Positions 11,784-34,666 are shown, counted from the stretch's first letter. The stretch: 64,000 bases of DNA from Candidatus Nanopelagicales bacterium (GCA_041393775.1 JAWKJM010000003.1:30811-94810), one strand, 5' to 3'. Numbers and translations are program-made. The notes: generated by a model from the letters alone, not told the origin.

Positions 11784-13012
11784 GGCAGGCTCAATCGCGG
11801 CTCGGAGTACACCTCGCCGTCGAGTTCCGGCAGGCTGTCTGCGCCGTCGACGGTCACGCGTATCAGCCAGTCCCCGTCGGGGATGTCATCACGGCGCAGC
11901 TCCACGGCCGGGGACGGGGCCGCATCCGGGGGTAGCACGTCCAGGCCGAAGCGCAACGACTGCGGCTCCCCGGGGGTCAACCGGGTCAACCGCACTTCCG
12001 CGCGCTGACCCGGGTACAGCGCAGGGACGACCGCCAGCGATACCACGGTGGCCGACACGGCGTCCACTGCGACCGTGGGCCGCACCAGCACCGGGACGCT
12101 GTTGGAACGCGCGGTCACCCGGGTGACGCCGTCAGTGGTGGCACTGTGCACGACCTGCAGCGCGTGGATCCCGGCAGGCACTACCGCCGGCACCACCACT
12201 CGCAGGCGATCGGGTCCGGTGGCGACCGGCGTCAGCGACTCCGCACCGATCCGCACCACCGTGGCGGTGCTCAGCAAGCCACTGCCGACCACGTGCAACT
12301 CGGTGCCGGTCAGCACGGGTCCGTGCGCTGGATCGGTGTCCACCGAGCGAATGCGTGGTGGGGCGATCGGCGCCACCCCGACGCTGCGCTGCCGCACCGG
12401 TAGCACGACCCGAGGGCTGACGTCCGCCTCCAGCAGCACGACGGTCGCCGTGTAGGCCAGCGACAGCAGGTACGGTGCACCCAGCATCCCCCACAGCCGT
12501 GACATCTCCTCGAGCGTCACCGCCGCCGGCGCCAGTTTGACCAGTTCCACCTGATCGGCGAGATCCGCGTCGGCCAGGAAAGCGGTGGCGATGTCCCCGT
12601 CGTACTGGTCGAGCGCCGCTGCCACCAGGTCGCGGGTGAGCACCGGGGTCATCGCCAGCGCCAGCACGGCCCGGCCGAGCAGGCGCTGGGCGTCCAGGTG
12701 GGTGTCGTCGCCGAAGCAGGAGATCAGGTAGTGCAGGTCCAGCGCCGCTACCGGCCTGTGCGACAGCGACCCGTCGGCGCGGCGGGTCGGTAGATCGGTC
12801 AGGTTCCACGCGTGGTTGGGCGTGACCTGGTGCAAGTAGACGTTGATCCCCTTCGCAGGCTCGCCGAGATCGTCGTGCGCGGCGACCTGGTCCGGGCGCA
12901 TGGTCGTGACCGCGGCCGAACCCACCGGGCCGGGCTGCGGTCCGCCGAGCGCCTGGCTGAGCACGAACCGGATGGTCGAGGTCACCGCCGCGATCGCCAG
13001 CGTGTTGCTCAT
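11780..13012 (-). CDS. DUF4255 (Pvc16/Afp16-like tail terminator/cap) protein with Ig/TIG-like C-terminal extension, 410 aa
   Basis: The N-terminus MSNTLAIAAVTSTIRFVLSQAL...INVYLHQVTPN is typical of the Pvc16 N-terminal domain. The C-terminal part, PRIRSVDTDPAHGPVLTGTELHVVGSGL...VVRIG, looks like a TIG/IPT fold. There is an ATGA overlap at 13009-13012. Confidence 0.8.
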   Translation of the reverse strand: MSNTLAIAAVTSTIRFVLSQALGGPQPGPVGSAAVTTMRPDQVAAHDDLGEPAKGINVYLHQVTPNHAWNLTDLPTRRADGSLSHRPVAALDLHYLISCFGDDTHLDAQRLLGRAVLALAMTPVLTRDLVAAALDQYDGDIATAFLADADLADQVELVKLAPAAVTLEEMSRLWGMLGAPYLLSLAYTATVVLLEADVSPRVVLPVRQRSVGVAPIAPPRIRSVDTDPAHGPVLTGTELHVVGSGLLSTATVVRIGAESLTPVATGPDRLRVVVPAVVPAGIHALQVVHSATTDGVTRVTARSNSVPVLVRPTVAVDAVSATVVSLAVVPALYPGQRAEVRLTRLTPGEPQSLRFGLDVLPPDAAPSPAVELRRDDIPDGDWLIRVTVDGADSLPELDGEVYSEPRLSLP

Positions 13013-13824
13013 CGCCGGTCCTCCCGCCGTGCCGCGAGGTACTCGCCGAGGTCGGGGCCGGGCTTCGTCCGCGGTTCAGACGCCGCAGCCGGTGGCCGCA
13101 CCTCCACCCGTGCGATATGCACGTTCACCTGTGGTCTGCCATCAACCACGAGCTGCTCCACCACCGGCTCCGCCGCAATCCGCACCACGTCGGCGTCGGC
13201 ACGCCCCGAGGGTGCGCCGACCGCCGTGGGCCCCACCACGCGCTCGTCGACGAGTGCGGGGACGACGTGCTCGGCCAGCAACCCGGGCGGGACTGCGTCA
13301 ACCTCGGGAGCCACGGGCTCGGGCTCCGGCGGCCGAGTGCTGGTGGGAACCGGCTCCGCTGCGGGAACCGGCTGTGGTCCCGGCTGCACCGCCCGCGCAA
13401 CGGCAGGCATAGGCCGGACCACAGGCGTCACCGGCGCGGGCGCCCCCCGTGCGGGCGCCCGGGTCGCGGGGGACTGGGTCGAGGAGGCACGCTCGGCCGC
13501 CGGTTCGACCGGCGGCACGGGATCGGCCACTGGTTCCGCCGATGGCACGGCCTGCACGATTGGGCCCACCGGGGGCTCCGGCTGAGCAGCCGGGTTCCGC
13601 GGCGGGCCGGGCTCGGCAACCGGGCCCCGAGTCCTGCCGGGTGGGGCGACCGGCGCTGCCACCACTTCGGGGGCGACTCGCTGTGTGGCGGCCGGTTGCA
13701 CTGGACCGATCGCCGTCTCCGGCGCCGCCACAGCCTCCGATTCGAACACCGACCGCGGTCGCATGGACACCGTCAGCGCCGTCCCCGAGGCGAGGGCGGC
13801 CAGCCGGTCCAGGGCTCTGCTCAT
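13009..13824 (-). CDS. Pro/Ala-rich hypothetical protein; possible tape-measure/length-determinant analogue, 271 aa
   Basis: The internal start ATG at 13824 forms an ATGA overlap with the stop of the upstream gene; the rest of ORF-track 13009..14949 overlaps real genes in other frames. The centre is low complexity (PEPPVGP, PVPPVEP, PEPEPVAPE). The ordered C-terminus reads VVEQLVVDGRPQVNVHIARVEVRP. The role is inferred from position only. Confidence 0.55.
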   Translation of the reverse strand: MSRALDRLAALASGTALTVSMRPRSVFESEAVAAPETAIGPVQPAATQRVAPEVVAAPVAPPGRTRGPVAEPGPPRNPAAQPEPPVGPIVQAVPSAEPVADPVPPVEPAAERASSTQSPATRAPARGAPAPVTPVVRPMPAVARAVQPGPQPVPAAEPVPTSTRPPEPEPVAPEVDAVPPGLLAEHVVPALVDERVVGPTAVGAPSGRADADVVRIAAEPVVEQLVVDGRPQVNVHIARVEVRPPAAASEPRTKPGPDLGEYLAARREDRR

Positions 13825-14489
13825 CGAGCCGCCAGTTGCAGATAGGCGCTGCGCCGTGCCGGCGACAGGGCGAGGATCTCCGGCTCGGTCCAGCCGTACG
13901 CGGCGGCCAGTGCCGCGACGTCCTGCAACAACCCCGGTGCGGTCGCCGCCACCTGCTGCCACAACAACCCGGCCGCATCGACCACCCCGGTGACCTGCTC
14001 GCCGCAGTCCGGGCACTGTGCACGCACCTCTGGCACGGCATCCCCGGCGAGTTCTTCGAAGGCCTGTTCCACCAATTCCAGATCCGCGGCGGTCAGCTCC
14101 TGCCAGCCGTCGACGCACCGCTCCAGCAGCACCTTCCGGGCATCGGGGCGACCGCCCGCGGCCAGCAGGTCCCGCACCGTGGGGCAGCGCACCGACACCT
14201 CCCCGAAAGACACCGGGCACTGCACGGATGCCACACGGGCCCCTACCATCTGGCCCAGCGCCAGCTGCAGGTCCAGCAGGGTCCCGCACCGCTGGCAGGT
14301 GAGCACCACGTCGACCAAGTCCGCCAATGACTGCGCCGCCACCACAGCCACCTCGGCGACCGGGCGGTCGACCCACGGGCTGCCGTCCAACGCCGTGAGC
14401 ACGGCCGCCCCCCGCACCGGCTCGGGCGCACGTTCCCCGGCCTCCCAGGCCGCGAGCAGCGTCGCTGGATCCTGCAGGCCGGGTCGCAT
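13821..14489 (-). CDS. Conserved-position eCIS hypothetical protein with split zinc-ribbon-like Cys pairs, 222 aa
   Basis: The ORF starts 3 nt after the tube-gene stop. It has CQRC ... C ... C ... C ... CPDC cysteines (CQRCGTLLDL..., AQCPDCGEQV). Third-position GC is high. I recognise no family with certainty. Confidence 0.6.
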   Translation of the reverse strand: MRPGLQDPATLLAAWEAGERAPEPVRGAAVLTALDGSPWVDRPVAEVAVVAAQSLADLVDVVLTCQRCGTLLDLQLALGQMVGARVASVQCPVSFGEVSVRCPTVRDLLAAGGRPDARKVLLERCVDGWQELTAADLELVEQAFEELAGDAVPEVRAQCPDCGEQVTGVVDAAGLLWQQVAATAPGLLQDVAALAAAYGWTEPEILALSPARRSAYLQLAAR

Positions 14490-14492
14490 GGG

Positions 14493-15014
14493 CTACGGCT
14501 CCACGAACGACGGTTCCGTCGGTTCGGTCACGGAGATGTCGCGCTCCCAGCCCTCGTTCTCCAACTTGATGCTCTGGATGGCCACCGCGTTGGCGTTCGC
14601 ATCGAGCTCCGGCAGCGCCTCGAACTCCGACACCCAGCACCGGTAGACGTGGTAGGCGATCACGAGTTGGCCGGCCTCGTTGTACATCTCCAGGATGATG
14701 TCCTTGCGGAAGTCCTTCAGCGATGTCTCGGCTCCGAGCCCGGAACCGTAGTTCCAGACTTTGTTCGCCCACCGCTCGAACTCCACGTCGTGGGTGACAC
14801 CGCGGTGCAGCATGATCGCCTCGAACTCCGAGCGCCCGGGCGACTTGCGACTGCTGCTCGGGTCGCCGCCACTGCGGTGCTTGACGACTTCGGTGGTGCG
14901 TTTGAGCGCCCCGACCTTGCTGACGCCAGCCACGTAGCGGCCGTCCCACTTGACCCGGAACTTGAAGTTCTTGTACGGGTCGAAGCGATTGGCATTGACC
15001 GTGAACTCAGCCAT
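14493..15014 (-). CDS. Contractile-tail tube protein (T4 gp19-like, Afp1/Cis1-type), 173 aa
   Basis: MAEFTVNANRFDPYKNFKFRVKWDGRYVAGVSKVGALKRTTEVVKHRSGGDPS is the classic conserved phage-tail-region tube signature. It lies immediately downstream of the sheath gene. Confidence 0.9.
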   Translation of the reverse strand: MAEFTVNANRFDPYKNFKFRVKWDGRYVAGVSKVGALKRTTEVVKHRSGGDPSSSRKSPGRSEFEAIMLHRGVTHDVEFERWANKVWNYGSGLGAETSLKDFRKDIILEMYNEAGQLVIAYHVYRCWVSEFEALPELDANANAVAIQSIKLENEGWERDISVTEPTEPSFVEP

Positions 15015-15029
15015 GGGTTCCTCGCTCTC

Positions 15030-16580
15030 TCACGCGCCCGCCGCAGCGGTCTTCTGCTGGATGCTGATGATCACGAACTCGGCGGGCTTCAGCGGAGCGA
15101 ACCCGACGAGGATGTTCACGATCCCGCGGTCGATGTCGTACGCAGTGGTCGTGTCCGCGTCGCAGCGCACGAAGTAAGCGTCGCGCGGGGTTGCCCCCTG
15201 GAACGCCCCCCGCCGGAACAGGTCCTGCATGAACGCGCCGAGCGACACCCGTATCTGCGCCCACAGGGGCTCGTCGTTGGGTTCGAAGACCACCCACTGC
15301 GTGCCGCGGAAGAGACTCTCCTCGAGGAACAGCGCGAGCCGGCGCACCGGCACGTACTTGTACTCGTCGCTCAGGATGTCGGACCCACGCAGGGTGCGCG
15401 CCCCCCACACGACCGGCCCAACCCCGCGGAAGGTACGCAAGCAGTTGATGCCCAGCGGATTCAGCCGGCCGTTCTCGGCGTCGGTCAGCGGCACCGTCAA
15501 GCCACTTACCCCGGCCAGCCCCGCCTCGGTACCCGCCGGCGCCTTCCACACCCCGCGGGCGGCATCGGCGCGCGCAAACGTGCCGGCAACGGCCCCGCAC
15601 GCCGCGAAGTCGGCGGCCGCGCCGCCCCGCAGCGGGTCGGGCCGTCGGATGCGCGGGAAGTACAGCGCGGCGTTGCGCATGTTCACGCCGGTCAACGCGC
15701 CGTCCCCGGCCGCCCAGTCGTCGATGTTCGCAGCAGTGGCGGTGGCAGGCGCGTCGACGATCAGGAAGGCCCGTCGCCGCGCACAGAAAGCGGCCGCATC
15801 GGCCCACAGATCGTCGGGCACGTCGGTGGCCGGGGTGGGCGGCGGGATGCACAGGATGTTGAACAGATCCGCGCGCAACAGGGCGAACATGCCGGTCTTG
15901 TCGTCCTCGTCCCCGCTGTAGTCGGCCAGGCCCGGGGCATCGCCGTCGGCACCCTCGGTGGCGACGGTGTAGATGTCCTCGTCCGGTCTGTCATCGGGCA
16001 GGTCACCGTCCACCTCCACCAGGCCGGAGGCCGCCAGCACCACGTCGACCCGGCGCGGGCCGTCCGCGACCGTGACATTGAGGTAGGTCTCACTGGGCGC
16101 GTCGTCCGCATCGGACTCCCGGACCACCACGCTGAACAGGTCGTCGGCCTGAACTCCCTGCGCCTGCGCGATGTCTTCGGCGTCCTGCCCGCTCGGGTGC
16201 GTGACCTCGACGACCAGGGTGTTGGCCCATGCCCCGGGGCCGGTCGCCACGAGCGGCAGGCCACCGGCGTCCACGGTGGCGCTCGATGCGCTGTCGTCCG
16301 GGGCGTTCTCATCGGTGTGCACGACCCGTACGACGAGCGCCTCGCCGCCGCCGTTGAGGTAGAAGTCGCGCACTGCGTACCCCAGACCACTGCGGCGCCA
16401 CAACCCCCCGAAGGCCCGCTCGAAGTCCGCGAAACTGGCGATCGGTACCGGCTCGTCGACGGGACCGCGCAAGGCCGCGCCGACGAAAGCCGTGATCGAA
16501 GTGGCGACCCCGGTGACTGTGCGGCTGCCGCTGGGCAACTCCTGGACGTACACCCCCGGGTAACTGGTCGTGACCGTCAT
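15030..16580 (-). CDS. Contractile-tail sheath protein (Afp2/Cis2-type), 516 aa
   Basis: The N-terminus SYPGVYVQELPSGSRTVTGVATSITAFVGAALRGP and the C-terminus GINCLRTFRGVGPVVWGARTL...YKYVPVRRL are hallmark sheath motifs. Confidence 0.9.
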   Translation of the reverse strand: MTVTTSYPGVYVQELPSGSRTVTGVATSITAFVGAALRGPVDEPVPIASFADFERAFGGLWRRSGLGYAVRDFYLNGGGEALVVRVVHTDENAPDDSASSATVDAGGLPLVATGPGAWANTLVVEVTHPSGQDAEDIAQAQGVQADDLFSVVVRESDADDAPSETYLNVTVADGPRRVDVVLAASGLVEVDGDLPDDRPDEDIYTVATEGADGDAPGLADYSGDEDDKTGMFALLRADLFNILCIPPPTPATDVPDDLWADAAAFCARRRAFLIVDAPATATAANIDDWAAGDGALTGVNMRNAALYFPRIRRPDPLRGGAAADFAACGAVAGTFARADAARGVWKAPAGTEAGLAGVSGLTVPLTDAENGRLNPLGINCLRTFRGVGPVVWGARTLRGSDILSDEYKYVPVRRLALFLEESLFRGTQWVVFEPNDEPLWAQIRVSLGAFMQDLFRRGAFQGATPRDAYFVRCDADTTTAYDIDRGIVNILVGFAPLKPAEFVIISIQQKTAAAGA

Positions 16581-16925: not shown

Positions 16926-18086
16926 CTACAGGTCCGGTTGCTCCGGCAGGTCCGCGCCCTTCACCTTCTTCTCCGCCGTCGCGATGGCCGCCTGCCACGC
17001 GTCGTACGCCTGGCCGTAGCGCGCGGTGATCCGGTCGGACTCGGTCTGGAACTGCTCCCACTGCGCATCGAACTCGAAGTAGCACTCGCCATAGATGCAC
17101 TCGGCGTCCTCGAGGGCTGCAACGGCTGAATTGATGGCGTCGGCAGCGTCGCCGATGACCGTCACGATGCGCGCGTGAACCGCGCGCAATGCGCTCGGCG
17201 GCTTCAGCGCCGCCATCTGGGTGGCGACCTCACGCCGATCGGTGCCCGCCTGCGTGAAGTAGTCGATCACGTCGTACATGTAGACGTCGTCGCTGCGCAT
17301 GTAGTCGACGTAAGCCGCCGTGTCATTGCGCAGAGCCGTGTATTGATCGATCAACGACTCCATCTGTGTGTGGTAGGTCCGCACGTCCTGGCGCTGCGAC
17401 TTGGCGGTGGCCTTCGCCTTCTTCACCTGCTTGCGGTACTTGGCCATGGCTTGATCCACCCGACGGGTCAAGTCGTCCAGCGTCCGGACCGCATCGTCGC
17501 CCTCGGCAGCGGCGGGCTCCATGTCGCCGCCGTAACTGGTCAGCGTGTCCAAGTCGTCCACGAGGTCGTCGCGGTTGTCGGTCCACACCTGCGTGTTCGT
17601 CTCCTCGTAGGCCTGCAGTGCAGCGAGCGCGGCGAACGCATCCCGAAGGGTGGTCAGCCGGTCCGCGCCCTTGGCGCCGGGATCCTCGTCGAGGGTCGCG
17701 TTGATCGTGGTCAGTTCCGCCTGCGCACCGCCGGCCACGTCCTGGACCATCTCGGTGGACTGCGCCCCCGACATGCCGTCCAGCGACGCCATCAGCACGG
17801 GGCCGGAGGCGTTGTACTGGTCCTTCGCCGCGCTGGTCTGCGTGAGACCCCACCACGCCGCGCCTGCCAGGATCAGGCCGATCGCGGCGACCCCTGCGAT
17901 TACCAGACCCCGGCGAGGGCGCCGCGCCGATTGCGTCGGCCCATGCGGCTCCTCGGTCGCTGCTTCCTCAGGCTCGTCGAGGACCTCGACGACCTCGATC
18001 TTGTGCCCGCACTCGTGGCAGAACTTGTCGCTGTGCTGTATCGGCTGCCCGCATTCGCTGCATACGGCCGCGGCGTCGTCCTCCAT
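16926..18086 (-). CDS. Zinc-ribbon / single-pass membrane protein with large extracytoplasmic helical domain, 386 aa
   Basis: ATG 18086 is preceded by a GGGAGG RBS. The protein has CSECGQPIQHSDKFCHECG (CxxC-x11-CxxC), an acidic linker, a TM segment GLVIAGVAAIGLILAGAAWWGL, and then ~290 aa of helical sequence. Confidence 0.75.
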   Translation of the reverse strand: MEDDAAAVCSECGQPIQHSDKFCHECGHKIEVVEVLDEPEEAATEEPHGPTQSARRPRRGLVIAGVAAIGLILAGAAWWGLTQTSAAKDQYNASGPVLMASLDGMSGAQSTEMVQDVAGGAQAELTTINATLDEDPGAKGADRLTTLRDAFAALAALQAYEETNTQVWTDNRDDLVDDLDTLTSYGGDMEPAAAEGDDAVRTLDDLTRRVDQAMAKYRKQVKKAKATAKSQRQDVRTYHTQMESLIDQYTALRNDTAAYVDYMRSDDVYMYDVIDYFTQAGTDRREVATQMAALKPPSALRAVHARIVTVIGDAADAINSAVAALEDAECIYGECYFEFDAQWEQFQTESDRITARYGQAYDAWQAAIATAEKKVKGADLPEQPDL

Positions 18087-18188
18087 CTTGGGACCTCCCG
18101 TGTGCACGCCCCTTCAGGGTAGGACTGACACGTGCGACGATGCGCGGTTCGCGTCGCCGGGCCCAGTGCTGCCGAGCGACGAGTGCGG

Positions 18189-19775
18189 CTACTTCTTGAC
18201 CTTCACCTTCGTCGTGGCCTTCACCTTGTCCTGGAAGCTCAGCCGCAGTCTGTACTTGCCGGGCTTGAGCCGCTTCGGCAGTTTCCACTTCAGCGTGTTG
18301 ATGCCCGCCTTCGCCTTGCCCCTCTTGGTGAGAGTCTTCTTGCCCTTGAGCGTGAACTTCAGAGTCGCCGCGTGCGTCACGCCGTACTTCACCCGCAACT
18401 TCTTGCCGGCCTTCACCGATTTCACCCCGGGCACCCACACCGCAGCCAACTGCGCAACCCCGTTAGCACCCGGCGGTCCCGCCGGACCGGTCTGCCCGGT
18501 CTGGCCCGTCGGTCCGGTCAACTGCGCAACCACCGTGATCGGATTGCTGACCGCGGACATCGTCGTGAGCAACGCCGGGAGCCGTGCGGTGGAGGTGCAC
18601 GTGACCACCGCACCCAGATCAGCGGCTGTCGGCGTGTAGACCAGCCCCGACTCTCCCGCGACCGCGGCCCCTGCCCGCTGCCAACTCACTGTGACCGAGG
18701 ACTTCGGGCCCCACACGTCCGCCCCGCACACCAACGGCAGACCGACCTGGCCGGACCCGGCCAGCCCCGGACGACGGTCGGCCGCGGACACACCTGAGGT
18801 GATCCTCCCGATCTTGTTCGCACTGAAACTGCCCTCAGCGAACCACAGGTTGCCGTCCGCGCCCGCCGCGATCCCGTACGGGGAACCGTTGGCCGTGGTC
18901 ACCGGGAACTCCGTGACCGCCCCCGACGGCGTGACCCGTCCTACCTTGTTCTCCGCGCGCTCGGTGAACCACAGATTGCCGTCCGGGCCCGCCGCGATCC
19001 CATACGGTCCGCTGCTGGTCGTCGTTACCGGGAACTCCGTGACCACCCCCGACGGCGTGACCCGTCCGATCGCGTTCCCGGTGCTCTCCGTGAACCACAG
19101 ATTGCCGTCCGGGCCCGCCGCGATCCACCACGGCTGACTGTTCGCCGTCGTCACCGGGAACTCCGTGACCACCCCCGACGGCGTGATCCGCCCGATCGCG
19201 TTCCCGATCGCTTCTGTGAACCACAGATTGCCGTCCGGACCCGCCGCGATCCCGCGCGGACGACTGTTCGCCGTCGTCACCGGGAACTCCGTGACCACCC
19301 CCGACGGCGTGATCCGCCCGATCGCGTTCCCGTAATACTCCGTGAACCACAGGTTCCCGTCCGGACCGCCGGCGATTCCGCTCGGCCGACTGTCCACCCC
19401 GGGCAGCGGGAACTCGGTGATCACCCCCGACGGCGTGATCCGCCCGATCCTGTTCCCGGTGTACTCGGTGAACCACAGGTTCCCGTCCGGACCGCCGGCG
19501 ATCCCGGACGGCCCACTGTTCGCCGTCGTCACCGGGAACTCCGTGACCACCCCCGACGGCGTGGTCCGCCCGATCCTGTTCCCGTTGAACTGTGTGAACC
19601 AGAGGTTCCCGTCCGGACCGCCGGCGATCCCGATCGGCCCACTGTTCGCCGTCGTCACCGGGAACTCCGTGATCACGCCTGGGTCGGTGGCCGCGTTCCC
19701 GGGCGCGGCCGCGAGACCCTGCATTCCCACTACGACGGCAACCACGACTTCCGCCAACTTCGCGAACCTCATCAT
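18189..19775 (-). CDS. Secreted seven-blade Vgb-like beta-propeller repeat protein with Ig-like domain, collagen-like GXY stretch and Lys-rich C-terminal module, 528 aa
   Basis: Translation probably starts at MMRFAKLAEVVVAVVVGMQGLAAAPGNA, a signal peptide. Seven 42-aa repeats follow (TEFPVTTANSxPxGIAxGPDGNLWFTExxGNxIGRITPSGV), seen as a 126-nt DNA period (for example 19141 vs 19267). The stretch GPTGQTGQTGPAGPPGANG lies at 18459-18515. The last 89 aa are rich in K. Confidence 0.8.
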   Translation of the reverse strand: MMRFAKLAEVVVAVVVGMQGLAAAPGNAATDPGVITEFPVTTANSGPIGIAGGPDGNLWFTQFNGNRIGRTTPSGVVTEFPVTTANSGPSGIAGGPDGNLWFTEYTGNRIGRITPSGVITEFPLPGVDSRPSGIAGGPDGNLWFTEYYGNAIGRITPSGVVTEFPVTTANSRPRGIAAGPDGNLWFTEAIGNAIGRITPSGVVTEFPVTTANSQPWWIAAGPDGNLWFTESTGNAIGRVTPSGVVTEFPVTTTSSGPYGIAAGPDGNLWFTERAENKVGRVTPSGAVTEFPVTTANGSPYGIAAGADGNLWFAEGSFSANKIGRITSGVSAADRRPGLAGSGQVGLPLVCGADVWGPKSSVTVSWQRAGAAVAGESGLVYTPTAADLGAVVTCTSTARLPALLTTMSAVSNPITVVAQLTGPTGQTGQTGPAGPPGANGVAQLAAVWVPGVKSVKAGKKLRVKYGVTHAATLKFTLKGKKTLTKRGKAKAGINTLKWKLPKRLKPGKYRLRLSFQDKVKATTKVKVKK

Positions 19776-19904
19776 GAGCACTCCCTCCGTTGTGCAGGAG
19801 TTTAGGAGGTCGGTCAACCCGCCAGAGTTGGTCGCGCAACGACCGGTGCCCGCCCCGAGGGTGCTTCGCGGTGACACGAGACGGCTTCAGCAACAGCGCC
19901 GGCC

Positions 19905-19959: not shown

Positions 19960-20047
19960 AGGGGCCTGCCGTGACCCCTTCGGACGGTGGCCAGGCCGCA
20001 CGCACGTCGCTACGCTTGGGCAATCCGAAGCCGCGGGAGTGCGCCGT

Positions 20048-22090
20048 ATGGAAGCCGAACACGCTCTGCTCATGCTCGCGAACTGGCCCGTCGCTGCGGT
20101 ACGGGCGGCGACCGCGGACCTGCCCGAGCGGGCGATGGTGGTCATCCGCGTCACCGGCCCCGACGGCGACCGCCACTACGCAGTCGACGCAGGCAGCGTG
20201 CGGCTGGTCCTCGAGGGCGCTGATCCCGATCGGACACTCGCCGACGTCATCGACCTGAGCAGTTTCCCCGAGAGCCGCACGGTCGAGATGGATGAGCCTG
20301 GGGTGGTCGATCCGGTCCCGGGGGACGTGCTGGTCCGCGGTGCCGAGGTGCTCGGGGTCGTGCGGGGAACCGACAGCGTCCGCGGGGTTGAGGGCGGCCA
20401 GCGGGCGCGGCCGCCGAGCCCGCCCCGGGAGACCGTCGGGGACGAACTCGAAGAATCCATGGCCGAACCCGATGCCGCCGACTCTGCGCCACCCGAACCG
20501 CCCTCGACAAGACGCTTCCGCGCCTTCCCCGCGCTCGATGCCCCAGCCGAGGTCAAGGAAGGCGACAGTTTCACTCTGAAGGCCGGGTTCCAGACGCAAC
20601 CGCCCACCACGGACCCGGCCGAGCAACCGGTGATCGTCGCGTCGGCACCTGAACAACTCACGTTCGTGGTGCAGGTGGGCGGGTTCGGCTTCGGCTTCCC
20701 CGACGGCATCCGCACCGAACTGACCGTCGAGCGCGACTCCCCCGACGGACCAGTCGCCGAGTTCACCGTGGTGGCCGGCGACGTCAACGTGCGCGCGACC
20801 CGCACCCTGGAAGTGTCCTTCGAGTACGCCGGCGAGTTGTGCGGGCTGGCGTGGCGCGACGTGCAGGTGGTCTCCGAACCCCCCGATCAGCCGCCCACAC
20901 ACACGCCCGCGTCCGGCGGCACCGGGGTGACCCTGAACGTCGATGCCGGCGCCCCGAGCCTCACGGTTGTGATCCGCAGCGAGCCCGGATCGGCACAACT
21001 GGAGTGGCTGTTCCACCCGCGGGAGAACATCGAGCGGCCCTCGCAGCGGGTGACGACCACGCTGGAGGCGCCCTCGGCCGAGGCCTTCGCCGTCCAGCTC
21101 ATGGCCCAGTTGCCTGCCGCCAAGGACGCGGTGTCGCTGCCGCTGACGGTCCGGGGCATGGGCAAACTCGTCAACCGCGTCATCCCCGACGAGTTCTGGG
21201 CGATGATCGAGGCGACCTGGCGGGCCGCACCTGACGGGGGGATCCCCTCGTTGCTGCTGACCACCAGCGAACCGTTCGTGCCGTGGGAACTGGCGTGGGT
21301 GGACGACGAGGTGGTGGATCCCGCGCTGTTCCCGGACGGGGTGACCGAAGGCCCGCTGGGCACACTGTGGCGGGTGGGCCGGTGGGTGCCACCGGTTAGA
21401 CGCCGTCGCGGCCCCGACCGGCCTGCGGTGCCCCCGGTGGGGCAGGTTAATGCCGATGCTGTCGCTGTGGTGATCGGCGACTACGCGGCCGACACCAAGA
21501 TCCGCAGCCTGCCGCACGCGGTGGAGGAGGGCAAGGCGATCGCCCTGCGCTACGCGGGCCTGCCGCTGACGGTCAGCGAGGGCGACGTCGACCGACTGAT
21601 GAGCGGCGGCCTGGAACGCGACGGTGCCGCGTACGCACCCACCGTCGTGCATTTCGCGGCCCATGGGCAGGTCAGCACCGCGCAGCAGCAGTACACCGGG
21701 ATCCTGCTCTCCGGCGGCCGTCGGCTGGACCTGCTCACGGTGGAGGGCAGCAGACTTGGTGAGTCCGGCGCGCCATTCGTTTTCCTCAACGCCTGTCAGG
21801 TCGGCACCGCGAGCACCGTGTTATCCACATACGGCGGGCTGGCCGGTGCGTTCCTGGGCAACGGTTGTCGTGGGTTCCTGGCACCGTTGTGGAATGTCGA
21901 TGACGAAGTGGCCAAATCGATCGCACTGGACTTCTACCAGCGGACTCTCGGGGACGGCTTGTCCGTCGGCGAGGCGGTGCGGCAGATCCGCGCCGGCTTC
22001 GGCACCGGGCAGGCGGGCACGGCCACCCCCTTGGCCTACGTCTTCTACGGTCACCCGGAACTACAACTGCGACACGGAGGTGGTCCCTGA
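20048..22090 (+). CDS. CHAT-domain (caspase-fold) protease with N-terminal small domain and Ig-like middle region, ~680 aa
   Basis: ATG 20048 is 8 nt after GGGAG; the ORF-track GTG 20039 is an alternative start. The C-terminal half has LLLTTSEPFVPWELA, the catalytic-His context VVHFAAHGQV and the catalytic-Cys context FVFLNACQVG, followed by GFLAPLWNVDDEVA. Confidence 0.8.
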   Translation: MEAEHALLMLANWPVAAVRAATADLPERAMVVIRVTGPDGDRHYAVDAGSVRLVLEGADPDRTLADVIDLSSFPESRTVEMDEPGVVDPVPGDVLVRGAEVLGVVRGTDSVRGVEGGQRARPPSPPRETVGDELEESMAEPDAADSAPPEPPSTRRFRAFPALDAPAEVKEGDSFTLKAGFQTQPPTTDPAEQPVIVASAPEQLTFVVQVGGFGFGFPDGIRTELTVERDSPDGPVAEFTVVAGDVNVRATRTLEVSFEYAGELCGLAWRDVQVVSEPPDQPPTHTPASGGTGVTLNVDAGAPSLTVVIRSEPGSAQLEWLFHPRENIERPSQRVTTTLEAPSAEAFAVQLMAQLPAAKDAVSLPLTVRGMGKLVNRVIPDEFWAMIEATWRAAPDGGIPSLLLTTSEPFVPWELAWVDDEVVDPALFPDGVTEGPLGTLWRVGRWVPPVRRRRGPDRPAVPPVGQVNADAVAVVIGDYAADTKIRSLPHAVEEGKAIALRYAGLPLTVSEGDVDRLMSGGLERDGAAYAPTVVHFAAHGQVSTAQQQYTGILLSGGRRLDLLTVEGSRLGESGAPFVFLNACQVGTASTVLSTYGGLAGAFLGNGCRGFLAPLWNVDDEVAKSIALDFYQRTLGDGLSVGEAVRQIRAGFGTGQAGTATPLAYVFYGHPELQLRHGGGP

Positions 22091-23565
22091 TGGCGGACCT
22101 CGATGGCAGCGGCATACCGGTCGATCTAGGGGCGGGCGTAACACTGGTCGCCCCAGGTCTGCTCGGGACCGCCGAACGGGCGCCGGAACTGCTCGGTGGG
22201 CGAGCCGACGAGGAACCACCCGCGACGCCGGCCCTGACCGACGCCCTGACCGGGGCCGGTCTGCAGCAGGTGCACGGGGTCCAGATCGACGCCACCGAGG
22301 TGCCCCCGGTCGGAGCCGACGTGCGAGGGCCGCACGACGAGGGTCTGATGTTGCTGCAGGTCCCCGACCTCGGCCCGGACTCCCCACAGGTCCTGCTGCA
22401 GGTCGACGAGGCCGGGATCGCCACCTGGCACTTCCCCGAGCCCGTCACCGGCATGGCCCCGGGCACCCTCGAGTTCAGCGTCCCGAGGGAGGTGGCCACC
22501 GACAGCGTCGAGGGGGCATCCGACGACCGCGGCCTGGCCGCTGCGATCGGGCGAAAGTTGCTTTCCGTGCTGGTGTTCCCGGCGATCGAAAAGGGGGTCG
22601 GCCTGCTGGCCCGGGTGCTGGCGGAGAAATACGAGAAGACCTCACGCCCCTACCGACTACGCACGTTCGCGCCGGGCGAGACCCGCACCCCCGGGGCCGG
22701 CGACCTGACCGACCGCGGTTGGGACGGCATCGACGGCCGGGCACTGCTGTTCGTCCACGGCACGTTCGCGACTAGCCACGGGACCTTCTCGGGCTTGCCG
22801 GACGAGGTGATCGGCCACTTGTGGAACGCCTACGGGGGCAACGTGCTGGCGTTCGACCACCCGAGCCTGTCGGTGACGCCGCAGCAGAACGCCGCCCAAC
22901 TGCTGTCCATGATCCCGCCCGACCGCAGGCTCGACGTGGACATCGTCTCGCACAGCCGGGGCGGTCTGGTTGCGCGCGCGATCGCCGATATTGCGACAGG
23001 TTCGCCGCTTCAGGTGCGCAGCACGGTCTTCGTCGCCGCCCCGAACGGTGGCACGCCCCTGGCCGACGACGCCCACATCAAGTCCTTCATCGACCGCATG
23101 ACCACGATGTTGAACCTGATCCCGGACGGGCCGTTGTCGTTGCCGGCCGACATCCTCGGCGGCGTCCTGGACGTCGTCAAGATCCTCGCCGCGGGCGCCG
23201 TGGAGGGACTGCCCGGGTTGCGCGCGATGGACCCGACCGACCCCGGACTGGGGACATTGGGCAGCGCCGCCAGCCCCGACATCGTGCGCTACGCCGTGGA
23301 CGTCGACTTCGAACCAACCGGCAGCCTGCTGTCGCTGACACGGGTCAAGGACGCCGCCGTGGACCTGGTATTCGGGCAGAAGGCCAACGACATGGTGGTG
23401 CCCACCGATGGCGCCGCCGGGGCGGCAGGCCTGCCCGGATTCCCGGTGCCCGCCGACCGACGACTGTCGTTCGGGCGCAGTTCCAGCGTGTGGCACTGCT
23501 CCTTCTTCTCCCAGCCCCAGACCGCTCAGCACCTGCGCCAGTGGTTCCGACCCGAGCAAGGATGA
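22090..23565 (+). CDS. Alpha/beta-hydrolase-fold serine hydrolase (lipase/esterase-like) with ~180-aa N-terminal domain, 491 aa
   Basis: The start overlaps the upstream stop by 1 nt (TGATG). Motifs are LLFVHGTFATSHGTF, the nucleophile elbow DIVSHSRGGLV, and later NDMVVP and VWHCSFF as candidate Asp and His. Confidence 0.7.
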   Translation: MADLDGSGIPVDLGAGVTLVAPGLLGTAERAPELLGGRADEEPPATPALTDALTGAGLQQVHGVQIDATEVPPVGADVRGPHDEGLMLLQVPDLGPDSPQVLLQVDEAGIATWHFPEPVTGMAPGTLEFSVPREVATDSVEGASDDRGLAAAIGRKLLSVLVFPAIEKGVGLLARVLAEKYEKTSRPYRLRTFAPGETRTPGAGDLTDRGWDGIDGRALLFVHGTFATSHGTFSGLPDEVIGHLWNAYGGNVLAFDHPSLSVTPQQNAAQLLSMIPPDRRLDVDIVSHSRGGLVARAIADIATGSPLQVRSTVFVAAPNGGTPLADDAHIKSFIDRMTTMLNLIPDGPLSLPADILGGVLDVVKILAAGAVEGLPGLRAMDPTDPGLGTLGSAASPDIVRYAVDVDFEPTGSLLSLTRVKDAAVDLVFGQKANDMVVPTDGAAGAAGLPGFPVPADRRLSFGRSSSVWHCSFFSQPQTAQHLRQWFRPEQG

Positions 23566-23568
23566 ACG

Positions 23569-24288
23569 ATGGACCTGATTCCGCTGTACCAAGCCACCGC
23601 CGACGGAGAACTGAAGCAAGCCCTCGATGCACAGCCGGAACTGGTGTCCGAGGAAGCCGCGGAACAAGCGCACGCCGACTTCGTCGGGGCCAGCGAGGCG
23701 GGCAGAGCCGACATCGCGTACTTGGCCGCGACGACCGGGGCCATCATCCGGCTGCAACTAGGGCAGCGGGAGGAGGCCCTGTCCGAGAGGTTCGGAGCGG
23801 CACAAGCGCTGTTCCTACTCGCCGAGGACGTGCCGGCGTACGACAACGCCCGGGCCGAGGCTCAGGAGATCGGTGCCCATGCCGTCGAGATCGGTGCACT
23901 GGGCCTGGTCTTCCGGTGCTGGGTGCAGGTGGCCGACTGCTCCTGGTTCGCCTTCGATGCCGACCCCGACGATCCCCGACCACGGCTGATGCAGTCCATG
24001 CGCGACTGCGCGGACGCGCTGGACTGGGCGGGACGGCTGCCGGACCTCGAGGAACAGGACAACTGGCTCGAGCGGCTCGCGTCGCTGGTCAGCGTCGTGT
24101 CGGGTGAGGCCATGAGCAGGGTCTGGTCGGAGGATCTGCTGGAGGCCGACGCCGTCATGCGCCGGCTGGCCAGGGGCACTGAGGCGCTCCCGGTCGACAT
24201 GGCCTTCGAGTCGACCGGCGGGGTGGCGAAGACCGCGCAGGTCGCTTCGCTGCTGTCCGAGCTGGAGTCCCGGTACGGTGCTCCCTGA
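23569..24288 (+). CDS. Hypothetical acidic all-helical protein, 239 aa
   Basis: ATG lies 3 nt after the upstream stop. It follows the coding-frame GC3 pattern. I recognise no motif. It is packed between the hydrolase and the second CHAT gene. Confidence 0.6.
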   Translation: MDLIPLYQATADGELKQALDAQPELVSEEAAEQAHADFVGASEAGRADIAYLAATTGAIIRLQLGQREEALSERFGAAQALFLLAEDVPAYDNARAEAQEIGAHAVEIGALGLVFRCWVQVADCSWFAFDADPDDPRPRLMQSMRDCADALDWAGRLPDLEEQDNWLERLASLVSVVSGEAMSRVWSEDLLEADAVMRRLARGTEALPVDMAFESTGGVAKTAQVASLLSELESRYGAP

Positions 24289-24300
24289 CGTGGTTGCCGG

Positions 24301-26001
24301 ATGACATCGCGCGCGCTGCTCCGGCTGCGCTCGGCCATGGAAGCGGCGGCGGCGGCGGGCGACATGCAGGCCTGGCTCACGGCCGCCACCTCGTTGCAGG
24401 GACTGCTCGAACGGCAGGAACCGGATGCCGCTGGCCGGACCGAACTGTACGCGGACATGGTTGCGGCCTGCGACCAGTTGCGGTGCGCGTGGCGCAGCCG
24501 GCCCGGGCGGTTGCGGGTCTCGCAGGACGCCGACCGGGTGACCGGTCCGCTGCTGCGCGACCTGCTCGACGACCCGGATCCCGACCTCGGGCAGATCCTC
24601 GCGCTGACCGAGGCGGCGAGGGCACGGGTGCTGCTGGACGCGTTGTCGGGGCTGTACCGAGGTGACAGCGGCGACCCCGACGAGAAGCGGGAAGCCGACC
24701 GGGTGCTGGCCTTCCCGCCCGACCCCGACCCGGATCCGCTGCGCCGCGAGATGGGCCTGATCAGTGCGGTGCGCGCGCTGGACGACCATCTCGCCCAAGC
24801 CCGGCATGAGGCCTTGGCGGCAGTGGAGTCGATGTACGCACGGGCTGCGGGCACGGGCTTCGAGGGCGGTGCCGCGCCCGTCGGCCTCGCTGCCGTGCAA
24901 GCGGCACTGCACCCCGCTGAGGTCCTGGTCGAGTACCTCGTCCCCCACCACCCGCTGCACCCCGCACTCGGCCTGGCAGCGTTGGTGATCACTCCCGACG
25001 ACGCGCGGCTGGTGCCAGAACTGCAGTTGCCTCATCGTTTCGTGAGCGGCTTCACCGGCAGCTACGGCATCGACGGCCGGGCCCCGGTCGACGCAAGTCC
25101 GCTGGGCGACATGGTCGTGGGCGCGCGGCGCGCCGTGCAGGGCCCGGATCCCGTGGCGGCCCGGGAGGCCGGGCGCATGCTCCACGACGTGCTGATCCGG
25201 CCCCTGGACGTGCCCACCGGCAGGTCGCGGTGGATCATCGTGCCGCACCGGCAGTTGCACCCGGTGCCGTGGATGGCGTTCGTGGATCCGGGCGGCGACC
25301 CGTGGCTCATGACCACGACCCTGACCCTGAGTCCGAGCGCGTCGGTGTGGGAGGCGCTGACCCGCCGCCGCCACGAGGGGTCGTCGGCGCTGGCGCTGGG
25401 GGACCCCCTGCTGGGCTACGCGGGAATGCCCGCCCTGCCCCAGGCCGCCGACGAGGTCGACCACCTCGGGCAGGTGTGGCGCGTGCGGGGGCTGGCGGCG
25501 GATGTGCGGATCGGCGCGAAAGCATCGGTGGGCGCGCTGCGGGAGGCGGGGCCCGGCGCGTCCGTGGTCCATCTGGCAACGCACGGGACCTTCCCGGACA
25601 GCGCGTCGGGCGAGGACCACCAACTGCTGCTGAGCATGTCCGCCGGGTCGAACGGGCGCGTGCCCGCGTCGTTGCTGCGGGGGCTGGACCTGCGCCGGGC
25701 CTGGTGCACCACCTTGAGCGTGTGCAACGGCGGGCTCTACCGCATCGGCGCCGGCGACGAACCCCTGGGACTGCTCCCGGCGGCGCTTGAGGCGGGGACG
25801 TCCAGCGTGATCGCCGCGCAGTGGGCCGTCGATGATGCCGCCGGCCGCCGGCTGATGACCTCGGTGACGGACGCGCTGCCCGGCCGAGATCCGGCAACCG
25901 CTGTGCAGGAGGGGGTGCTGGCAATGGCAGACGCCGGAGCGCCGCCGCGGGACTGGGCGGCCTTCACGGTGATCGGGTCGGGCCGCGGGCCAGCTCCTTG
26001 A
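24301..26001 (+). CDS. Helical-repeat (TPR-like) N-terminal domain plus C-terminal CHAT protease, 566 aa
   Basis: ATG lies 12 nt after the upstream stop. CHAT contexts are IIVPHRQLHPVPWMAF, VVHLATHGTF (His), TTLSVCNGG (Cys) and VIAAQWAVDDAAG. Confidence 0.8.
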   Translation: MTSRALLRLRSAMEAAAAAGDMQAWLTAATSLQGLLERQEPDAAGRTELYADMVAACDQLRCAWRSRPGRLRVSQDADRVTGPLLRDLLDDPDPDLGQILALTEAARARVLLDALSGLYRGDSGDPDEKREADRVLAFPPDPDPDPLRREMGLISAVRALDDHLAQARHEALAAVESMYARAAGTGFEGGAAPVGLAAVQAALHPAEVLVEYLVPHHPLHPALGLAALVITPDDARLVPELQLPHRFVSGFTGSYGIDGRAPVDASPLGDMVVGARRAVQGPDPVAAREAGRMLHDVLIRPLDVPTGRSRWIIVPHRQLHPVPWMAFVDPGGDPWLMTTTLTLSPSASVWEALTRRRHEGSSALALGDPLLGYAGMPALPQAADEVDHLGQVWRVRGLAADVRIGAKASVGALREAGPGASVVHLATHGTFPDSASGEDHQLLLSMSAGSNGRVPASLLRGLDLRRAWCTTLSVCNGGLYRIGAGDEPLGLLPAALEAGTSSVIAAQWAVDDAAGRRLMTSVTDALPGRDPATAVQEGVLAMADAGAPPRDWAAFTVIGSGRGPAP

Positions 26002-32939: not shown

Positions 32940-33947
32940 TCAATGCGCAGCCCGGTACGCCGCCCAGATCTGCGGGCGCAGCCGGCCGCGATCCGAGACC
33001 GTCAACCCCTGCTCCTGGGCCCACGCGCGAACCTCTGCCACCGTGGGCTCGGCCGGGGCCAACGGACCCGCGGTCGGGAACTCGACGGCCGCGGCGGCAG
33101 ACTCCTGGGCGAGTTCGGCCAGGCCCGCGGCCAGGAACCGGTAGGTCCACTCCTCAGCCAGAGTCCGGGTCTCCGCGAACACGATCGGCACGCTCGGGCA
33201 GCGCACTTGTGCCTCCGCGAGCGCATCGGCGACCATTGACGGCCGCACGTGCTCGAGAGCGAACACCTTCGAGTACCTGTCCTCGACCACCACCGCAGCG
33301 CGCGGCAACGCCGCCAACTCCGCCATCGCGAAACGCAGTTTCCCGTCGAGCAGACTGCTGGACAGATCGGCAAGCGACTTGCGTTCGACGGCGACCGCGA
33401 CCTGGCCGTCGAGTTCCACCGCGTAGTCCCCGGCAGGCAGGCCCCGGCGCCGCGTTTCGACATGGCCGCGTCCGGACTGCCGGGCGAACGTATAGGGGTA
33501 GCGCTCATGGCTGTCCACCAGCACCACGATGCCGCCCAGCCCCTGCGCCCGTCCCGTCGGCATGGGCACGTTCGGGCGGGCCTTCTTGGTGGTGCGCGGG
33601 GACTGCCAGAAGATCGCCTCCCGACCTCCGCGGATGCGGGTGATGACGAACTGCGAGCGGTTCTCGCGGCCACGATCCAGCACCAGGTCGATGGCGGCTC
33701 CCCGTCGCCGGCAGGAACGGACCGGCACCCGCTCGACAATGTCCGGGGCCACCGGCCACCCCGACGCGCGGTGACAGTAGACCTTGGACGTGCGCGGCCA
33801 CGTGTCGCGCACCTTCAGCACGATCCCGTGCTCCCCGATCGGTATCCGCACAAGATAGGGAAGACTCGAGTCGGGGTCCGGGTTGCGCGCTATGACGAAG
33901 TCGTCGGGCACATCGCGAGTCTGACACAGCCAAGCCCGTGCATTCAT
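32940..33947 (-). CDS. ERCC4/XPF-type nuclease domain fused to an unknown N-terminal domain and a C-terminal Lsr2-like DNA-binding domain, 335 aa
   Basis: The ERCC4 signature is VVLVDSHERYPY ... GDYAVEL ... VAVERKSLADL. The C-terminus, PTVAEVRAWAQEQGLTVSDRGRLRPQIWAAYRAAH, matches the Lsr2 C-terminal RGR DNA-binding motif. Confidence 0.7.
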   Translation of the reverse strand: MNARAWLCQTRDVPDDFVIARNPDPDSSLPYLVRIPIGEHGIVLKVRDTWPRTSKVYCHRASGWPVAPDIVERVPVRSCRRRGAAIDLVLDRGRENRSQFVITRIRGGREAIFWQSPRTTKKARPNVPMPTGRAQGLGGIVVLVDSHERYPYTFARQSGRGHVETRRRGLPAGDYAVELDGQVAVAVERKSLADLSSSLLDGKLRFAMAELAALPRAAVVVEDRYSKVFALEHVRPSMVADALAEAQVRCPSVPIVFAETRTLAEEWTYRFLAAGLAELAQESAAAAVEFPTAGPLAPAEPTVAEVRAWAQEQGLTVSDRGRLRPQIWAAYRAAH

Positions 33948-34009
33948 CCGGCAACGCGTAGGCGCACAATGAAACCAGCGACCGGCGGCCGCGGTTTGGG
34001 GCTTGAACA

Positions 34010-34666
34010 GTGATCAGCAACGTGTTGCGCCGTACGTTGGTGCCGGCAGTCGGTGTCTGCCTGGGACTTGCCATGGTGACCATTCCGGGGACGGCCACAG
34101 TCGCAACCAGGACAGTCCCTGGGAAGACACTAGTTGTCACCGTCGCGGGTCTCGGGTCCCAGACCACGGCCAAGGTGAAGGTCACCGGACCCAAGAAATA
34201 CAAGAAGACACTGCGTGTTCGCGGACGCACCCGACTGACCGAACTGCGCCCCGGCCGCTACACCCTCAAGGCCAAGGCGGTGGGCCAGAAGCGCGCGGTG
34301 GACCGGGTCCAGCGGGTCCGGGTCAAGAATAGCCGCGGCGCGAAGGTGCGCTTCGTGTACAAGGCGCAGGTCAAACCGGACACCACCGCCCCCTTGCCGG
34401 TGTCCAACATCAGGGTGGTTCGGTTGACCGCGCACACCATCGTCCTGTCCTGGGATCTGCCCGAGGACCTGCTCGAGGTGACCGTCGAACGCTCCGGCGG
34501 CACGGACGCCGACCCGCTCGACTTCGTCCTGAACGACGCCGGTGACGGCCTCGTCGACACCGGGCTGACCGCGGGCAAGGAGTACACCTACCGGGTGGCG
34601 ACCATCGACGACGCGGGTAACACCTCGAGTTGGAAGTCGATCACGGTCAGCACGCTGGCCGAGTAG
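34010..34666 (+). CDS. Secreted protein: basic Ig-like module plus fibronectin type III domain, 218 aa
   Basis: An N-terminal signal/anchor is followed by KVKVTGPKKYKKTLRVRGRTRLTELRPGRYTLKAKA. The FN3 pattern is APLPVSNIRVVRLTAHTIVLSW...GKEYTYRVATIDDAGNTS. Confidence 0.7.
   Translation: MISNVLRRTLVPAVGVCLGLAMVTIPGTATVATRTVPGKTLVVTVAGLGSQTTAKVKVTGPKKYKKTLRVRGRTRLTELRPGRYTLKAKAVGQKRAVDRVQRVRVKNSRGAKVRFVYKAQVKPDTTAPLPVSNIRVVRLTAHTIVLSWDLPEDLLEVTVERSGGTDADPLDFVLNDAGDGLVDTGLTAGKEYTYRVATIDDAGNTSSWKSITVSTLAE

Follow-up and report, generated by a model that had tools for sequence, protein, structure and literature searches.

Background

Alpha/beta-hydrolases are among the most abundant protease-effector modules according to Evans et al. 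2025 (bioRxiv, PMC12642450). In Lysobacter capsici AZ78, LcCaspase cleaves the LcHydrolase zymogen at R73|G and R117|G, co-expression of the LcHydrolase fragments is lethal to E. coli, and 161 homologs keep the R|G motifs; the substrate of LcHydrolase is left open in that study (PMC12642450). Here we consider a related locus, in which a gene for a caspase-like protease of the CHAT type (g1) is followed by a gene for a lipase-like hydrolase (g2) and by two further genes (g3 and g4). It occupies positions 20048 to 26001 of a 64,000-nucleotide stretch from Candidatus Nanopelagicales bacterium (GCA_041393775.1 JAWKJM010000003.1:30811-94810). We refer to this whole stretch as the window, and all window positions are counted from its first letter.

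The pairing of a caspase with an alpha/beta-hydrolase is not new. Kaur, Burroughs, Iyer and Aravind 2020 (eLife, PMC7159879) reported that in VMAP ternary systems the caspase domain 'always' comes with an alpha/beta-hydrolase gene next to it. They also described a related hydrolase from GAP1 GTPase systems, and they predicted a role in the conflict or apoptosis-like responses of bacteria that are multicellular or aggregate. Hence a first-pass annotation of the window, which knew of no characterised system of this composition, has to be corrected, since the two papers already describe the core pairing. Its other suggestion, a caspase-like protease and hydrolase module of the conflict or cell-death type with the hydrolase as a likely protease-activated effector, is supported by the pairing reported below and by these precedents. 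More generally, the gating of effectors by proteases is coming to be seen as a dominant principle of bacterial immunity, one that parallels caspase/gasdermin and caspase/CAD signalling.

In our opinion the locus represents a known kind of protease-effector module in a new architecture and not a categorically new system. The features of this variant are a larger hydrolase with an Arg-bearing N-terminal domain, a TCAD7-CHAT protease and a split second CHAT protease. Several features are shared with the Lysobacter module: a gene for a caspase-superfamily cysteine protease adjoins a gene for an alpha/beta-hydrolase of lipase/oligopeptidase-like fold, the pairing is kept in Actinobacteria and Pseudomonadota, the hydrolase carries conserved Arg-Gly motifs, and the protease has extra non-catalytic domains. 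There are also differences. LcHydrolase has about 300 amino acids (aa) and is cut at R73 and R117, whereas g2 has 491 aa and bears R79 and R147 in an extra DUF7362-like part (the two were compared by description). The catalytic Cys of LcCaspase lies near the N-terminus (C129), whereas g1 has its TCAD7 and Ig-like domains first and CHAT last (C583). Finally, the window locus adds the second, split CHAT protease.

Two other kinds of system deserve comparison. Bacterial gasdermin-protease systems (Johnson et al., bioRxiv 10.1101/2021.06.07.447441) share with our locus a CHAT or caspase-like protease with repeat domains beside a latent membrane-damaging effector released by cleavage. However, the putative effector here is a Ser-Asp-His lipase-like enzyme and not a pore-former, and Pfam gave no gasdermin-like gene among g1-g4. 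In type III-B CRISPR, a SAVED-CHAT -> PCaspase proteolytic cascade has been described (bioRxiv 10.1101/2023.06.23.546230); it likewise has two caspase-like proteases per locus, a likeness that suggests a two-tier cascade. A resemblance to type III-E Craspase (TPR-CHAT/Csx29) is found in the protease half of g1, which is structurally closest to separase and Csx29, and in the TPR-CHAT-like layout of g4. Unlike in the CRISPR-CHAT systems, the final target would be a dedicated hydrolase zymogen and not Csx30 or broad proteolysis. There are no SAVED or Cas matches in g1-g4 by Pfam and none by PADLOC, and the scanned neighbours belong to an extracellular contractile injection system (eCIS) or are housekeeping genes, though CRISPR arrays were not specifically searched for.

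The conserved unit is a protease-hydrolase pair

The two genes of the pair and the residues discussed below are the following (nt, nucleotides; all on the + strand).

20048..22090, +, g1: 680 aa; TCAD7, disordered linker, Ig-like beta-sandwich, CHAT caspase-like protease
20035..20039, +, ribosome-binding site GGGAG, read from the sequence, 8 nt 5' of the g1 ATG at 20048
20048..20380, +, TCAD7 (ternary-complex-associated domain 7) region of g1, from Pfam, ortholog matches and the AlphaFold2 (AF2) model
20381..20383, +, R112 of the R112-G motif of g1, at the end of TCAD7 and the start of a disordered Pro/Glu-rich linker
22090..23565, +, g2: 491-aa hydrolase, putative zymogen effector
22324..22326, +, R79 of g2: candidate protease cleavage site, Arg then T/G/S/A
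22528..22530, +, R147 of g2: candidate for cleavage at R-[GS]-L, located where the N-terminal domain gives way to the hydrolase
22954..22956, +, nucleophile S289 of g2 (VSHSRGG), with partners D434 (nt 23389-23391) and H469 (nt 23494-23496)

The family to which g2 belongs is large. Its full-length relatives share 36-50% identity, and at least 583 g2-matching stretches were found in species-representative genomes of Actinomycetota, Gemmatimonadota, Acidobacteriota, Pseudomonadota, Desulfobacterota, Planctomycetota and Rhodothermales. Eighty of these stretches were taken with 10-kb flanks (loci L001 and so on; proteins are given P numbers) and the four window proteins were used to search them. 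In 71 of the 80 loci the gene immediately upstream of g2, on the same strand, is of the g1 type; in three more a g1-type gene precedes g2 but is frameshifted or stands at a larger distance, and in two it is part of the same open reading frame (ORF). As for the four remaining loci, one contig begins inside g2 and three have a Peptidase_C14 protease instead, as a neighbouring gene in L034 and as an N-terminal fusion in L067 and L072. In other words, a caspase-superfamily protease stands beside the g2 homolog, or is fused to it, in all 79 informative loci (g1 type in 76, Peptidase_C14 in 3). Furthermore, the pairwise identities of g1 and of g2 correlate with r = 0.91, a value reached by none of 500 label permutations; therefore g1 and g2 are co-inherited.

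Judging from these sequence comparisons, the conserved unit is g1 plus g2 and not the set of four genes. The first-pass annotation had treated the four genes as one operon whose co-occurrence elsewhere should be looked for. The cassette does recur outside this genome, in L001-L011 and L086, and to that extent the expectation was borne out. As a conserved unit, however, the four genes had to be given up, because the 80-locus comparison shows the second protease to be optional. One of the four-gene cassettes, with a g3 only 49% identical, is flanked by GNAT and NUDIX genes, not by eCIS genes. In the 90%-identical relative L086 (13944-16415), the cassette is succeeded by a Transglut_core gene and by another g1-g2 copy, which is partial, and the g1 of the first copy appears frameshifted.

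Several loci depart from the simple two-gene arrangement. Protein P0181 (L089:1993-6369) joins DUF7362, DUF7379, DUF7363 and CHAT in one polypeptide, and its gene is followed by one for a Peptidase_C14. On the megaplasmid of Ruegeria pomeroyi DSS-3 (L091:7392-13289), WP_051420469.1 (966 aa) is a hydrolase-CHAT fusion followed by a 986-aa AAA ATPase, with an IS5 transposase adjoining; the hydrolase domain is thus present in plasmid-borne 'CHAT domain-containing proteins'. In L067 (8057-11443, Solirubrobacter phytolaccae) and L072 (7829-11437, a metagenome-assembled genome (MAG) of Gemmatimonadales), an N-terminal Peptidase_C14 and a g2-like hydrolase share an ORF of about 1130-1200 aa, which amounts to a protease-effector fusion using a different caspase family. 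In L020 (6946-12352) the order is [NucA][g1][g2][C14], the NucA being of the Endonuclease_NS type.

The family of TCAD7-CHAT proteases with DUF7362-DUF7379 hydrolases thus covers at least 583 species-representative genomes in many phyla. A full-text literature search for DUF7379 and TCAD7 found no papers.

The protease g1 and its N-terminal domain

The CHAT domain of g1 is recognised by Pfam (E 2e-19) at aa 477-651 of the 683-aa translation that begins at an upstream GTG. Its catalytic motifs are VVHFAAHGQ (H539, nt 21662-21664) and FLNACQVG (C583, nt 21794-21796), and the His and Cys are kept in at least 90% of 99 sequences. The N-terminal ~100 aa of the window g1 match TCAD7 below threshold in Pfam (E 0.089), and the aligned orthologs match it significantly (E 1e-20 to 5e-5); the NCBI label for g1 orthologs is 'TCAD7 domain-containing protein'.

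An AF2 model (mean predicted local distance difference test, pLDDT, of 82) was made on the 672-aa protein P0135, to whose numbering 8 must be added to reach that of the ATG at 20048. In P0135 numbering it starts with a small alpha/beta domain (aa 1-96), continues with a disordered linker rich in Pro and Glu (aa 100-145) and with beta-sandwich domains (aa 149-330), and ends in a helical plus caspase-fold half. Foldseek matched this half best to separase, Csx29 (TPR-CHAT), DdvA and gingipain R. An R-[GSAT] motif follows TCAD7 in about 61% of the locus-derived orthologs. R112 of the window protein is a weak lead for a processing site in g1.

Given that TCAD7 stems from the work of Kaur et al. 2020 on ternary-complex systems, one may ask whether the cassette is self-contained. 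The pair could be the effector arm of an NTPase system encoded elsewhere, either a vWA-MoxR-VMAP 'ternary' system or a GTPase-centric one, to which TCAD7 would dock g1. The pair described by Kaur et al. is indeed an accessory of VMAP and GAP1 systems (PMC7159879), the caspase/alpha-beta-hydrolase pairing is the same, and on the Ruegeria megaplasmid a large AAA ATPase follows the fused hydrolase-CHAT protein. The window pair differs from those systems in that it stands without adjacent MoxR, vWA, VMAP or GAP1 genes and in that its protease is a separate protein and not the N-terminus of VMAP. The TCAD7 of the ternary systems is recognised through the orthologs, but the fixed-order vWA-MoxR-VMAP gene set was not found among the scanned window genes; Pfam scans of the neighbours gave only the AAA ATPase of the eCIS. 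Elsewhere, VWA_2 occurs in 2 of the 124 immediate neighbours of 31 diverse loci and MoxR is not recurrent, while the g1-g2 pair travels alone across phyla. In our opinion a dependence on a distant NTPase system is therefore unlikely.

The hydrolase g2 and its proposed activation

The hydrolase core of g2, which the first-pass annotation had recognised by the nucleophile elbow VSHSRGG, is confirmed in several ways. Pfam assigns DUF7379 plus a PGAP1-like alpha/beta-hydrolase (E 7e-49). Among 194 sequences S289 is invariant (100%) and D434 and H469 are each kept in 98%. Foldseek places the core closest to bacterial lipases of families I.1, I.2 and I.5 (E 4e-8), and the g2 profile matches the 'putative lipase' 7x2p in the PDB (E 1.5e-10). 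Thus the suggested Pfam and AF2/Foldseek examination gave matches to a CHAT caspase fold for g1 and to a bacterial lipase fold for g2, and the expected conservation of catalytic residues was seen in both proteins, as it was in g4 (below).

The AF2 model of g2 (mean pLDDT 75) begins with a beta-rich domain (aa 1-135) followed by a low-confidence loop (aa 138-158, pLDDT below 50). A helical hairpin (aa 148-185) and the lipase-like alpha/beta-hydrolase core (aa 216-491) make up the rest. We call the N-terminal domain DUF7362-like, since DUF7362 matches were obtained for the g2 orthologs P0048 and P0050 and for P0181. The most hydrophobic segment of g2 is the cap helix at aa 350-373.

It is the N-terminal part that carries the candidate cleavage sites, conserved arginines followed by a small residue amid otherwise variable stretches. 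R147 is Arg in all 194 g2 homologs, followed at P1' by Gly in 125 and Ser in 60 and then by Leu, with a variable upstream flank; in the model it falls inside the low-confidence loop. At position 79, 97% of the same homologs have Arg, with a small P1' residue and variable P2-P6. A third R-G motif, present in 72% of the homologs, is deleted in the clade of the window. We also considered R290-G291 of the HSRGG motif as an analogue of R73 in LcHydrolase and rejected it, because a cut there would destroy the active site and because the Lysobacter site ends a helix.

Several features expected of a protease-effector module are seen here: adjacency or fusion of the genes, an intact His-Cys dyad, a lipase-like hydrolase triad and conserved motifs of the R|G type. 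In our opinion they point to a cytoplasmic protease-gated effector module of the conflict type, that is, for abortive infection or regulated cell death, the core of which would be the translationally coupled pair of g1 and g2. An activating input would probably reach g1 through its TCAD7 and Ig-like domains, or else through a second protease. The predicted g2 product would be a latent lipase/esterase-like hydrolase kept inactive by its DUF7362-like N-terminal region. Activated g1 would cut it after R147 (R147|G), and probably after R79 (R79|G) too, at positions that lie in the N-terminal domain or between it and the hydrolase core. The freed hydrolase would then kill or arrest the cell, with membrane lipids or some other ester as its most likely target. 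It is by analogy with Evans et al. 2025 that we propose the cleavage, the activation, the toxicity and the role in defence. On that analogy we find it reasonably probable that g1 is the cognate protease of g2 and that activated g1 frees a toxic enzyme by cutting g2.

There are several observations that speak against this proposal. Conserved arginines such as R79 and R147 can be structural. The sites of LcHydrolase are inside the hydrolase fold, whereas the arginines of g2 lie in an extra N-terminal domain and linker. If g1 were itself processed by a second protease, one might look for its post-TCAD7 R-[GSAT] motif mainly where such a protease is present, and it is not commoner there (23/33 with and 15/29 without). 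A scan of IMG/VR viral contigs found no relatives of the module, hence no phage-borne ones. Lastly, the census of 124 immediate neighbours from 31 diverse loci gave CHAT 10 times, Peptidase_C14 twice and nothing else more than twice, so that no recurrent defence genes besides these two appear in it.

That census also bears on an opposite reading of the pair, in which the hydrolase regulates or matures the protease, for instance by taking off a blocking acyl group or peptide, or in which the pair has a non-conflict role in developmental or housekeeping proteolysis or in lipid remodelling. No enrichment of defence genes around the pair is demonstrated by it, PADLOC has no model matching any of g1-g4, and the substrate is unassigned for every member of the family and also for LcHydrolase. 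Moreover, soil and activated-sludge bacteria of complex lifestyle are over-represented among the carriers of the family. Yet the patchy cross-phylum spread, the fusions, the exchange of CHAT for Peptidase_C14 and the varying second proteases are what one usually sees in conflict systems. The conserved Arg-small motifs sit in the hydrolase and not in a propeptide of the protease, and the direction in the biochemical precedent is from protease to hydrolase (PMC12642450). We would thus give a reversed dependency or a non-conflict role only a small chance.

Under the preferred order, with g1 acting on g2, the comparative data give testable predictions: the scissile arginines (R79 and R147 of g2), the catalytic residues and a removable N-terminal domain. 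The identity of the hydrolase substrate would answer the question left by the only biochemical study of this kind.

A second CHAT protease, split into g3 and g4

The second half of the cassette consists of two genes.

23569..24288, +, g3: 239-aa acidic protein, net charge -25
24301..26001, +, g4: 566 aa; helical N-terminal half and CHAT at aa 289-560

The g4 product has a CHAT domain at Pfam E 2e-40 with the motifs HLATHGT (H428, nt 25582-25584) and LSVCNGG (C475, nt 25723-25725), and the His and Cys are kept in 9/9 aligned orthologs. The annotation that both outer proteins of the cassette end in CHAT domains with intact His and Cys contexts is thereby upheld. In clustering, g4 groups with the TPR_10/TPR-S-CHAT protein of L015.

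The g3 product, correctly described before as an acidic protein of 239 aa, has no Pfam match, and it had been suggested to be an adaptor. We reject a novel adaptor, because g3-like and g4-like sequences are fused in a single ORF in Nocardioides iriomotensis (L013) and in L031 and because the long members of the g3 family end in CHAT. In hhalign, the whole length of the g3 profile matches aa 79-311 of the L013 ORF, which has 873 aa (probability 96%, E 4e-9), and this ORF continues as a g4-like sequence. An exhaustive profile search gave 146 clusters of the g3 family at 50% identity. Their members are either about 235-260 aa long or, in about 35 clusters, 800-890 aa, and all six of the 800-890 aa proteins that were scanned have a C-terminal CHAT domain. 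An earlier, word-indexed search had made g3 appear to be a tiny family of 14 clusters, which the exhaustive search corrected; each context recovered by the word-indexed search was ordered CHAT-DUF7379-g3-CHAT. Sequence comparison thus indicates that g3 is the split-off N-terminal module of a helical-CHAT protease, which elsewhere is a single g3-g4 polypeptide.

We would therefore regard g3 plus g4 as one helical-repeat (TPR-like) CHAT protease encoded by two genes, which would form an accessory and exchangeable tier outside the conserved core. Most likely it would be an upstream sensor or initiator protease, or else a parallel one. This place in the order is inferred only from the variability of the second protease and from the SAVED-CHAT -> PCaspase precedent. 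Among the 80 loci, g3 and g4 were found only in the close relatives of the window and in L013 and L031; the combination is restricted to a small actinobacterial clade.

A second protease as such is much more widespread. Another CHAT protein lies within the flanks in about half of the 80 loci, often directly adjacent, with the architectures CHAT-CBM9, CHAT-Big_2, CHAT-TPR, TPR_10/TPR-S-CHAT or that of g3/g4, and other loci have Peptidase_C14 as the second protease. No third partner emerged from all-against-all clustering of the flanking ORFs, in which only CHAT recurs and the other clusters reflect synteny within Micropruina. At some loci the neighbours are of mobile or conflict type (PemK, HNH, a Schlafen-like helicase, a serine recombinase, EAD1-trypsin, IS5). 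This natural series of second-tier proteases, and the split g3/g4 in particular, could show how sensor and protease modules communicate.

Two side observations belong here. L090 (1218-4550) encodes a fused g3-g4 CHAT protease of 812 aa without g1 or g2, with a gene for a 296-aa protein lacking Pfam matches 4 nt upstream. Such a g3-g4 protein with an unrelated partner is as expected for an exchangeable module, and the 296-aa protein may be a different protease-gated effector. In L088 (11626-13790), 3' of the g1-g2 pair, there are genes for a 387-aa uncharacterised protein and for an EAD1-Trypsin_2 protein, EAD1 being an effector-associated domain (Kaur et al. 2020, PMC7159879), with a serine recombinase upstream.

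Proximity to contractile injection systems

The eCIS of the window is encoded on the - strand at 8272-16580 and comprises a sheath, a gp19-like tube, Pvc16_N, an AAA ATPase and an eCIS_core protein. A Pfam scan confirmed that the sheath gene starts 3.5 kb from g1, as had been annotated. From this distance one may propose that the module is tied to the neighbouring contractile injection system (CIS), by processing its cargo, by serving a CIS-coupled death pathway or by being itself CIS cargo.

Some support comes from other lineages. An Hcp-like tube gene (PF05638, E 1e-20) immediately precedes g1 in seven loci from Micropruina. In two of these, L074 and L051, the cassette is also bordered by divergent Pvc16_N/AAA/eCIS_core genes on one side and by housekeeping genes on the other. 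In L034 (3548-8292), which has no g1, a phage-type sheath gene comes after [NucA][g2-like][C14]. Proximity to CIS genes in three independent lineages (the window, Micropruina and L034) is more than random placement predicts. The closest relatives, however, do not keep it: no match to an eCIS protein lies within 10 kb in the four-gene relatives L001, L009, L010 and L011, no eCIS genes appear among those listed for L086, in L003 and L004 GNAT and NUDIX genes flank the cassette, and in L001 the Zn-ribbon and Vgb-lyase-like genes shared with the window are placed differently with respect to the cassette. CIS genes are lacking in the vicinity of more than 70 of the 80 loci. Given these relatives and loci, the adjacency to the eCIS seen in the window is not conserved, and across the relatives CIS genes accompany the pair only in Micropruina and L034. 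The proteins g1-g4 are acidic and cytoplasmic, without an obvious disordered N-terminus of the cargo type. Moreover, accessory genes cluster in variable regions anyway, which is a sufficient explanation for the proximity. We thus consider a functional tie to the neighbouring CIS very improbable. As regards the link to the eCIS raised in the first-pass annotation, its local part fails with the closest relatives and its general part survives as a sporadic proximity in two other lineages.

A wider scheme would combine all the parts. In it, g3 plus g4 would activate g1, g1 would license g2 by cutting after Arg, and this two-tier caspase cascade would have been recruited repeatedly beside CIS (in the window, Micropruina and L034), coupling CIS activity or the detection of tail-like particles to regulated cell death. 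We hold this to be improbable as a whole.

The Micropruina cassettes (L074:5422-13720; also L050, L051, L056, L058, L059 and L079) have the order [Ig-like/CBM9 protein][Hcp-like tube protein, PF05638][g1][g2][CHAT-CBM9]. In the window itself, the end of the eCIS operon (8272-10161, -) encodes a 629-aa protein with eCIS_core (PF13699) at aa 97-170 and an unannotated C-terminal part of 450 aa; it is a candidate eCIS cargo or toxin.

Coding evidence and surroundings of the cassette

The four packed + strand genes of the first-pass annotation, with their 1-nt overlap and their gaps of 3 and 12 nt, were found again as ORFs at 20039/20048-22090, 22090-23565, 23569-24288 and 24301-26001. The g1/g2 junction is TGATG (the 1-nt overlap), and the gaps are those of g2/g3 (3 nt) and g3/g4 (12 nt). 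The DNA of the window is of the high-GC actinobacterial kind (66-75% GC), and the coding signal is clear in all four frames, with a GC content of 0.84-0.88 at third codon positions against 0.47-0.55 at second positions. The best-supported start of g1 is the ATG at 20048, because GGGAG lies 8 nt upstream and because its homologs begin with MEAEHALL. A promoter and terminator scan of the cassette gave nothing informative in this high-GC DNA, and an NCBIfam scan of g1-g4 gave nothing useful. None of g1-g4 has a transmembrane segment. The closest relatives are MAGs labelled Micrococcales, Actinomycetota or 'Mycolicibacterium', with a g2 identity of 83-90%.

On the 5' side, + strand genes at 3110-8228 carry Tail_P2_I and DUF6519/PASTA domains according to Pfam. 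Between the sheath gene and g1, at 16926-19877 (-), there are genes for a Zn-ribbon protein and for a Vgb-lyase-like beta-propeller. Both are kept in the relative L001, where they are differently arranged around the cassette; therefore the region between sheath and g1 looks like a rearrangement-prone accessory island.

On the 3' side of g4 the genes look like ordinary chromosomal ones (Pfam: Peptidase_M1, hydrolases, LMWPc, ERCC4-Lsr2 and a TPP enzyme). One of them, a 357-aa ORF at 32943-34013 (-), joins an ERCC4 nuclease domain to a C-terminal Lsr2 DNA-binding domain, which is an unusual combination.

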